The position numbers and the translations under genes are program-made. From a virus, in UHGV virus genome UHGV-0164982: DNA of 64,000 nucleotides; one strand, 5' to 3'. The notes under the pieces were generated by a model that was given only the letters and a program-made list of their open reading frames with translations, did no database searches and had not been told where the DNA came from. How positions within the stretch are numbered: position 1 is the stretch's first letter; the number at the start of each line of letters is the position of its first letter. Positions 27,826 through 28,978 of this stretch are shown piece by piece.

Positions 27826-28218
27826 ATGAATTACACTAAAGCAGTATCCACATCAAAAATATATGATTTTTGGGATACAAGTGATAACATTGTTGGGCGT
27901 ATAGAGGAGCACAATATGACTAATTATCATTGCATGCCAGACCTCAGCCCGGAAGAGATTCGTAAGATCTCTGAAGCAGCCGTGGCGAGTGTCGCTGCAA
28001 AAAAAATAGTCACTAACAGCAAGCATATAACTAAAAGTGCATCTTTAGCTGGAAAAGTGATGGCTAAACAGGCAGACGTTATCAAGAAACTGTCTGGCAC
28101 AGGTTCTTCTGCCATTAAAATTAATAAAGCATTTACGGACAGTGTACTTACGCAAAGCAAAAGTCGAAAATATTTTCAAGAAGCTTTCATACAAGTTCGT
28201 AAAACCATCAAGGTTTGA
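27826..28218 (+). CDS. small Lys-rich protein of unknown function (AT-rich cargo)
   Basis: ORF 130 aa; more likely start ATG 27916 with GAGGAG RBS (100 aa); visibly AT-rich compared with flanking structural genes. Confidence 0.45.
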   Translation: MNYTKAVSTSKIYDFWDTSDNIVGRIEEHNMTNYHCMPDLSPEEIRKISEAAVASVAAKKIVTNSKHITKSASLAGKVMAKQADVIKKLSGTGSSAIKINKAFTDSVLTQSKSRKYFQEAFIQVRKTIKV

Positions 28219-28241
28219 TGCTTTCATAAAACATGATTAAT

Positions 28242-28264
28242 GCCCCTTATCGGGGCTTTTTTTT
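28242..28264 (+). terminator. rho-independent terminator
   Basis: GCCCC-TTATC-GGGGC then TTTTTTTT. Confidence 0.65.
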
Positions 28265-28276
28265 GTTTGGTGCGCA

Positions 28277-28978
28277 ATGATTGAACAGCAAAAGCAATGG
28301 GTGTTTACTGAATTAGTAAAAGACCCCAATAACATCGAGCAACTAATTTCATACACGATTTACAAAGGTTTCAAAAATGAAATAGCCGATAATGCTCGTA
28401 AGATGGGCAAGACTGAAGATGAGATCAATGAGGAGTTAGCAAAATATCACAACTATTGCATTAGTTCTCAAAAGCAATTAGATGTTTTTAGAGATAAAGC
28501 TAAAAACACTCTTGACGCTTATATTTTCACCGCTAACCATAACATGACGAAACGGTTTAATGCGGAAATTATTAAAATAAAAAACCACTATGATAAAGAA
28601 CTTGAACTAGCGCAAAAAAAGTTAAAAATTGCCGAAAAAAAAGCATTAAATAAGCTGTCCAAAGGTGCGGTTCTCTACAGCCAAAAAATTAAAGAGCCAG
28701 AGCATCTCTGGGATAAAATCCTTGATTTATTGTGGAGACTTATGAAGTTTCTGTTCTCTGGCGTACCTAAACTTTTTGCTACTGCATTTTCTGTTGGTCT
28801 AATGTTCACAATTTATACAGCTTTCGACGAAGATGCCACGACAGGTCTGAGAAAAGGGCTATATAAAATTGTTGATATGACTGTACCAGGAAAAGATATT
28901 CACGAAACCACAGATAATATAACCAATAGTGGCACAGAAAAAACGTCATCTTCAAATTCCCAAGCGCAGCAAGGATAG
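28277..28978 (+). CDS. membrane-anchored protein of unknown function (AT-rich cargo)
   Basis: 233 aa; coiled-coil N-domain and one hydrophobic helix LFSGVPKLFATAFSVGLMFTIYTAF near C-terminus. Confidence 0.5.
   Translation: MIEQQKQWVFTELVKDPNNIEQLISYTIYKGFKNEIADNARKMGKTEDEINEELAKYHNYCISSQKQLDVFRDKAKNTLDAYIFTANHNMTKRFNAEIIKIKNHYDKELELAQKKLKIAEKKALNKLSKGAVLYSQKIKEPEHLWDKILDLLWRLMKFLFSGVPKLFATAFSVGLMFTIYTAFDEDATTGLRKGLYKIVDMTVPGKDIHETTDNITNSGTEKTSSSNSQAQQG

Follow-up and report, generated by a model that had tools for sequence, protein, structure and literature searches.

The stretch of DNA analysed here, 64,000 nucleotides of the UHGV virus genome UHGV-0164982 (hereafter the window), is part of a P1-like (IncY) phage-plasmid. 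Directly behind gene 5, the baseplate spike gene, it carries two small AT-rich genes, orfA (27916..28218, + strand) and orfB (28277..28978, + strand). OrfA is a basic protein of 100 amino acids (aa) predicted to be cytoplasmic, and OrfB is a predicted inner-membrane protein of 233 aa. We give an about even chance to the reading that orfA-orfB is an accessory ("moron") cassette, self-contained and horizontally mobile, that takes part in the conflict among mobile elements, most likely through phage exclusion or abortive infection. The mechanistic details proposed below are less probable than the reading itself.

The cassette is foreign to the P1 backbone in which it is found. Positions 27000-29800 of the window are 100% identical to several E. 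coli and Klebsiella plasmids (e.g., NZ_LC511659 and NZ_KX518745), and the flanks are 95-97% identical to P1, P7, SJ46, and RCS47. On the 5' side of the cassette are P1 genes 26, 25, 7, 24, and 6, and then gene 5, whose 210-aa product matches Phage_base_V and the baseplate hub family phrog_430. Two open reading frames (ORFs) on the + strand follow, 27826-28218 (130 aa) and 28277-28978 (233 aa), where the initial annotation had placed them behind the spike gene. It had also described both as far more AT-rich than the structural genes before them, and the GC content is indeed 36.3% in the cassette, compared to 49.2% in the preceding tail and baseplate genes and 47.3% in the entire window. In the alignment with P1 (NC_005856), identity is lost at ~27794, ~6 codons before the gene 5 stop, and is regained at ~28993 near the dbn stop. 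Therefore, the ~1.2-kb block between these points (27794..28992, no strand assigned; 36% GC), which takes in the final ~6 codons of gene 5 at one end, the final codons of dbn at the other, and the entire cassette, is a replacement or an insertion. What it replaces is the gene 5/dbn junction found in P1, where gene 5 is followed by 46 bp, a bidirectional terminator, and the convergent dbn, and then by ban, trnI, tciABC, upl, plp, two tRNAs, and dmt. Past the orfB stop, and before the dbn remnant ends, is a GC-rich hairpin, GCCGCGC...GCGCGGC (28991..29014, no strand assigned). By its sequence it replaces the bidirectional terminator that follows gene 5 in P1, and its function is putative. E. albertii P1-like plasmids have this block as well (OrfB 96% identical), preceded by gene 5 and followed by the dbn, ban, and tci genes, all intact.

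The pairing of the genes across loci shows that, as far as sequence goes, orfA and orfB are an obligate two-gene unit with predicted expression signals of its own. An orfA-like gene (58-110 aa) is found upstream of orfB in every locus retrieved. In ~40 loci, over OrfB identities from 100% to ~20-30%, it ends 48-74 nucleotides (nt) upstream of the orfB-like gene on the same strand. The loci retrieved are from P1-like plasmids of several genera, IMG/VR contigs, metagenome contigs, Klebsiella IncHI1B and Photobacterium plasmids, and the chromosomes of Pantoea, Dickeya, Cronobacter, Rahnella, Serratia, and Citrobacter. A third gene conserved beside orfA-orfB was sought and none was found. Both proteins have many homologues and are under clear purifying selection.

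The region between the two genes has a conserved layout. In the window, an intrinsic-terminator-like hairpin, GCCCC-TTATC-GGGGC with a 5-nt loop and followed by T8, is located at 28242..28264 (+ strand; z = -3.1 against shuffled sequence), which agrees with the terminator that the initial annotation had read between the two genes. A GC hairpin and T-run, followed by TGGTG and the orfB start, exists between the genes in 12 of the 13 distinct close and intermediate loci that were folded, and an equivalent hairpin is found in 5 of 7 very distant loci. The stems and loops vary by locus (GCCCC, CGCCCC, AGCCCCT, and GCGCTCC vs GCGCCCC). Seven of the 13 folded loci have a hairpin with z <= -3 against dinucleotide shuffles, and across the loci z goes down to -5.2. 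These tests were done by per-sequence folds with shuffles. A second allele, 48% identical and found in E. coli P1-like plasmids (L017, L023, and L025), has only a degenerate hairpin, GCTCCT…AGTGGC, in its intergenic region (~4948-5000; -5.6 kcal/mol, z = +1.0), and therefore terminator strength differs among alleles. In the orfB leader, the Shine-Dalgarno-like GGTG (28269..28272, + strand) belongs to a TGGTG(A/C) conserved 4-7 nt before the ATG in the intergenic alignment. In minimum free energy folds of window positions 28219-28276 and of loci L003, L006, L010, L028, L033, and L034, the bases after the orfA stop pair with this GGTG/Shine-Dalgarno sequence and enclose the hairpin. Such pairing, seen in single-sequence folds only, could keep the ribosome-binding site of orfB masked until ribosomes terminate at orfA, a form of translational coupling.

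Upstream of the orfA homologues is a conserved element, ATGCAA-16/17-TAGACT/TACACT, ~13 nt before the ribosome-binding site. The window has at the homologous position a weak sigma-70-like sequence, ATGATT-16 nt-TAACAT (27863..27890, + strand), which may act as a promoter. The ribosome-binding site of orfA is GAGGAG (27904..27909, + strand), and GAGGAG or GGAGG is found at equal distance from the start in all homologous loci. Every OrfA homologue begins at the Met equivalent to ATG 27916, which fixes the start of orfA; the 30-codon extension is peculiar to the allele of the window, and the 130-aa reading of the gene (27826-28218) was rejected. The initial annotation had proposed a Lys-rich protein of 100-130 aa with this GAGGAG at the internal ATG. 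The proposal holds, with the length now settled at 100 aa by the homologue starts.

OrfA contains 15% Lys and has an isoelectric point of 10.1. Its conserved N-terminal segment is MPxLSPEEIRxIS..AVA.VAA.KIVT, which in the 61 homologue clusters reads MPALSPEEIRKIS..AVA.VAAQKIVT. At the C-terminus is a conserved helix, SVLSQS..R.Y.QE.F..VRK (SVLSQS.GR.Y.QESFN.VRK across homologues). Between these two parts is a variable low-complexity linker rich in Ser, Thr, Lys, and Ala. The most distant OrfA partners retain just the size, the position, and a C-terminal …F..AF..V… motif. The poor structure predicted for OrfA fits a protein that would fold on a partner.

The prediction for OrfB is an inner-membrane protein that crosses the membrane once, with its N-terminus inside and its C-terminus outside. 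The AlphaFold2 model, made with 30 homologues, has a predicted local distance difference test score (pLDDT) of >90 for residues ~11-130, with helices at 20-42 and 47-63 and a 73-residue helix at 65-137. The predicted protein thus consists of a cytoplasmic three-helix head (~9-63), a long helical stalk (65-137), and a single hydrophobic helix (158-183; transmembrane motif FSGVPKLFATAFS) that leaves ~155 residues in the cytoplasm. These features match the coiled-coil N-domain and single C-terminal-side transmembrane helix that had been claimed for the 233-aa product. After the transmembrane helix come a conserved short periplasmic segment, GDA.TGLRKGLYK.VD.TVPG, and a variable, unstructured tail. 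The invariant core of the family is W-V-F..L……GL-I-A-Y-A-L-Y-K..K for the head, with S-G-x-P/A-G..A-T where the transmembrane helix begins. Exactly one hydrophobic segment exists in 84 of 87 aligned relatives, starting at ~74% of the length and leaving a median tail of 39 residues. The net charge is +1.7 before this segment and -0.1 after it, from which the topology is inferred. OrfB homologues form 33 clusters at ~45-55% identity, all from Enterobacterales. A profile search extends the family to at least 212 representatives, counted at 50% identity (129 of them at E <= 1e-10), all of which have 180-270 aa and the identical layout.

Although P1 genes 6 and 5 are found in 484 of 5,426 complete E. 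coli genomes (~9%), cassette DNA is found in only 10, and ~2% of E. coli P1-like elements carry it. Among ~480 P1-like plasmids, a tblastn search of PLSDB gave 17 plasmids with the allele of the window and 8 with an allele 47-49% identical to it. None of 50,697 phage records encodes OrfB by tblastn; the cassette is absent from P1, P7, SJ46, RCS47, and others, and 18 phage records match the flanks alone. The pair is rare accessory cargo and is dispensable for P1-like phages. If both proteins were conserved virion components of P1-like phages, or clear homologues of structural proteins, the proposal of a defence or exclusion module would fall. Instead, they are missing from ~98% of P1-like elements and no homology to structural protein families was found. 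The PHROG families of the cassette proteins, 34496 and 25194, belong to the function unknown category and are not tail families.

In P1-like elements (hosts E. coli, E. albertii, Klebsiella, and Salmonella) the cassette always follows gene 5, with three or more divergent alleles. A comparison of plasmids that carry the 48% allele with the window gives 99% identity for gp6 but only 82% for gp5; therefore, the 3' part of gene 5 travels with the cassette. A 3' fragment of gene 5 is found directly upstream of four copies outside P1-like elements: in a defence island of the Pantoea agglomerans chromosome (L003, 5277-5501), in a Dickeya integrative and conjugative element (ICE; L006, 5338-5523), and at the edge of a Cronobacter lambdoid prophage and in a Pantoea ICE (L010 and L014, ~6540-6610). 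The Cronobacter copy adjoins umuDC, and that of the Pantoea ICE exists between traG and a RAQPRD gene. These scars imply that the clade bearing them was exported from P1-like elements. The nin region of a Citrobacter lambdoid prophage harbours one of the more distant members; others are found in P2-like prophages amid tail and baseplate genes, in chromosomal islets, and on Klebsiella IncHI1B plasmids between IS5 copies. The family is also present in ICEs and on Photobacterium plasmids. In the Klebsiella copy (L035, 3762-4630; 245-kb IncFIB/IncHI1B conjugative plasmids of K. pneumoniae), a 211-aa distant OrfB relative has a 58-aa upstream partner and an intergenic hairpin. Close to it are an H-NS-family gene and a phospholipase D gene, and the 58-aa partner is missing from the PLSDB annotation.

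The genes around the cassette were identified by Pfam and PADLOC in a hand-picked sample of loci. Where there is enough flanking sequence of non-phage origin, the neighbours are often defence genes. In Pantoea the order is HsdR (type I restriction-modification), PifA (1.6e-79), the cassette, AbiH, and a TIR-like effector. In Rahnella laticis (L018) a complete Lamassu system (6967-10607), consisting of LmuA (1.2e-60), LmuC, and LmuB (2.8e-144), is located ~1.3 kb downstream of the cassette homologue, from which it is separated by an IstB-like insertion sequence fragment. One contig has bSEFIR (7.5e-125) and HEPN_AbiV near the cassette, and the Dickeya ICE has BrxC/PglY, a TerB-domain protein, and CcdAB. 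In the window, too, an orphan nuclease of the pAgo-associated type shares the slot with the cassette. Within this sample the cassette is found in defence islands or in accessory hotspots of mobile genetic elements, including prophage moron sites.

Several observations weigh against a role in defence. The association with defence genes comes from hand sampling, without statistics, and several contexts are not defence islands (e.g., efeUOB-phoH and Serratia metabolic genes). Neither Pfam nor NCBIfam has a family for OrfA, OrfB, or the 87 relatives searched. None of the 5,027 PADLOC models (PADLOC-DB v2) gives a significant match; OrfA has no match at all, and the best for OrfB is PDC-M64B (E = 0.002, 50 residues). 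OrfA has no recognisable DNA-binding or sensor domain in Pfam and PDB profile searches, and its AlphaFold2 model, of low confidence (mean pLDDT 63), consists of three helices with no globular fold. No informative fold or PDB match was found, and Foldseek of the OrfB model against BFVD gave nothing at E <= 0.001. Finally, the window's allele has a weak putative promoter, which agrees with the consensus at 7 of 12 positions and escaped the consensus scan.

PDC-M64B and PDC-M64C, which match OrfB with E = 0.002 and 0.0095 over ~50 residues, are the only defence-database models that touch the conserved N-terminal head (20-71). These models are 93-135 aa long and differ in architecture from the cassette proteins, and their marginal scores are not a leading match among the 87 relatives. 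Matches of LeoBC, JetC, LmuB, and ZorA to OrfB relatives were discounted since they are confined to the coiled coil. For Eleos LeoA/LeoBC, the best match (E = 6.4e-06; 30 of 87 relatives) aligns profile positions ~327-436 of 601 with the stalk only, and OrfB has no GTPase domain. Among PDB profiles, the helical pore-former/translocator proteins AopB (0.0077) and YaxA (0.018) match marginally and were judged compositional. The only family that OrfA matches is phrog_34496, annotated as "unknown"; no Pfam, NCBIfam, or PADLOC family includes it. All database names for family members are "hypothetical protein." A literature search with the family accessions, PHROG ids, and PDC-M64 found nothing, and two comparative papers on P1-like elements make no mention of the cassette in this slot. 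The pair belongs to a widespread, undescribed two-gene family and is a member of no described system. Of the module of a small partner and a membrane protein proposed in the initial annotation, the self-contained unit is strongly supported by the pairing, the spacing, and the hairpin, but the roles assigned to the two proteins find no support in PADLOC, domains, or fold. The homology and structure searches found no kinship with structural proteins and gave no family or fold that points to a function.

The roles of OrfA as regulator or sensor and of OrfB as effector, like abortive infection or exclusion itself, are inference. If the cassette acts in this way, the intercistronic terminator would keep OrfA in excess, with OrfB much rarer. 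With its conserved terminal helices, OrfA may bind OrfB at the cytoplasmic head, holding OrfB inactive or tuning it. On infection, OrfB would oligomerise through its long helix or stalk and the small-xxx-small SG..G..AT motif of its transmembrane helix. It might then block genome entry at the inner membrane, which is exclusion, or permeabilise or depolarise the membrane, which leads to abortive infection. A bolder version, which we consider quite unlikely, makes the cassette the founding member of an undescribed anti-phage family on enterobacterial and vibrio mobile elements, with the terminator as part of the mechanism. In that version the synthesis of OrfB would require a failure of termination or a collapse of the balance of OrfA to OrfB, be it by a phage antiterminator, by host transcription shut-off, or by loss of a labile OrfA. 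The transcriptional perturbation caused by infection would thereby be converted to a membrane attack or an entry block.

The cassette fits a known kind of gene set, the small defence or exclusion cargo of mobile elements with a membrane effector. Lambda RexA/RexB is similar in being non-essential cargo of a prophage that consists of two genes, one for a soluble and one for an inner-membrane product, with expression separate from that of the structural genes. In the Rex system the stoichiometry between RexA and RexB probably matters. However, the two pairs have no sequence or fold similarity: RexB has four transmembrane helices and RexA has 279 aa, while OrfB is a single-pass protein with a large cytoplasmic coiled coil and OrfA has 100 aa and is disordered and basic. 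Gene order and intercistronic terminator also differ. Superinfection-exclusion morons with a single transmembrane helix share with the cassette the location at a tail or baseplate operon's end or among tail genes, the AT-rich composition, the inner-membrane product, and dispensability. Examples of superinfection exclusion beside tail genes are HK97 gp15, P1 Sim, and T4 Imm/Sp. Unlike the cassette, these morons are single genes without an obligate small cytoplasmic partner, and no homology to them was found in PHROGs or PADLOC. The cassette, moreover, is also common outside phages, in ICEs, plasmids, and defence islands. A holin/antiholin pair was rejected: OrfB, at 233 aa, has ~155 residues in the cytoplasm, lysis genes adjoin the pair neither in the window nor at other loci, and there is no holin match in PHROG or Pfam.

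Alternatively, the pair may serve addiction, as toxin-antitoxin systems do in post-segregational killing. OrfB would be a membrane toxin and OrfA its labile neutraliser, made in excess, and the benefit would be stable inheritance of the element. We consider this unlikely. As in type II toxin-antitoxin pairs such as P1 phd-doc, the cassette is a two-gene unit on mobile elements; in all loci examined the small genes are adjacent and co-oriented as one unit. The upstream product is small, basic, and partly disordered, and an attenuating terminator would favour its excess over the larger second product. The confinement of the pair to mobile elements and islands also agrees with addiction, as do natural variants in which orfB is split or truncated with orfA intact (EAC2055077-79, on a single 104.8-kb contig, and the 147/148-aa forms in E. 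fergusonii). Such variants are compatible with a costly OrfB, but random decay could also explain them. Against addiction, no toxin superfamily was found in Pfam, NCBIfam, and PDB-profile searches, nor any known antitoxin fold; the AlphaFold2 model of OrfA has no ribbon-helix-helix (RHH), helix-turn-helix (HTH), AbrB, or Phd fold. The supposed toxin would be a membrane-anchored coiled coil, and the genes lie ~55 nt apart with a terminator between them, whereas overlap or translational coupling is typical of type II pairs. phd-doc is already present in P1-like plasmids, and the pair also exists in integrated prophages and chromosomal islets, for which segregational loss is no issue.

To an account outside phage conflict we assign a similarly small probability: a lysogenic-conversion or regulatory module in which OrfB, with an anti-sigma-like topology, is a membrane tether or transducer that sequesters or releases OrfA or otherwise alters envelope physiology. 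The single pass with the N-terminus inside, the large cytoplasmic head, and the conserved short periplasmic motif resemble membrane-tethered regulators; OrfA is small and basic, and some loci are among ordinary chromosomal genes. On the other side, neither Pfam nor PDB profile searches find a DNA- or RNA-polymerase-binding domain in OrfA, no conserved target gene is nearby, and the pair repeatedly adjoins defence systems. Still less probable, and in our view very unlikely, is an accessory factor of the infection or tail machinery (e.g., one that assists the gene 5 spike or genome ejection): the constant position after gene 5 in P1-like elements, the co-variation and co-transfer of the gene 5 3' end seen in gp5 and in the scars, and the distant copies among P2-like tail and baseplate genes favour it, but P1, P7, and the other P1-like elements without the pair are viable phages, ICEs, conjugative plasmids, the lambdoid nin region, and chromosomal islands carry the pair without tail genes, and the pair has its own promoter-like element and terminator, a foreign base composition, and PHROG assignments other than tail.

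P1-like phage-plasmids are common in E. coli and are vehicles of resistance genes, and their variable slots shape which phages and plasmids coexist. The cassette in this slot is a compact 1.2-kb module with clear boundaries, a conserved regulatory layout, and an association with defence islands. The unusual points of the family are the conserved intercistronic terminator and the gene 5 scar, by which its spread can be tracked. If the cassette is active, it would be a new membrane-effector system as well as an example of cargo exported from phage-plasmids to ICEs, prophages, and chromosomal islands, with the scar marking the route. Even without activity against phages, it would remain a membrane module that is widespread on mobile elements.

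The region between the cassette and dmt in the window differs from P1 in other ways. dbn is reduced to a frameshifted C-terminal half (29003-29500, - strand; aa 161-326), with 56% protein identity because of indels. The N-terminal half of P1's dbn, ban (a DnaB-like helicase), trnI, tciABC, upl, plp, trnT, and trnA are missing, and a 1.6-kb nuclease segment (29501-31114) exists instead. tciABC is listed as a variable region among P1-like elements (PMC9603915). ARAGORN finds no tRNA anywhere in the window, and an Rfam scan of 27000-33500 gave nothing above gathering scores; a tmRNA_permuted match at 31396-31499 (32 bits vs a gathering score of 47) is probably noise. The next gene after the cassette (29710-30645, - strand) is AT-rich (~36% GC) and encodes a 311-aa pPIWI-associating-type nuclease (pP_pnuc_1, 1.5e-34; pP_pnuc_2, 2.1e-33; PADLOC "Aga_Nuclease," 1.2e-62). 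It is an orphan with no Argonaute gene adjoining, and together with orfA/orfB it makes the gene 5-dmt interval a double cargo slot. Farther downstream, a ~1.33-kb TnpB-only element (31450-32778), with an ORF of the RNA-guided endonuclease TnpB family (31490-32665, - strand) and no adjacent tnpA, is inserted precisely in the P1 backbone between the dicF-like region and dmt.

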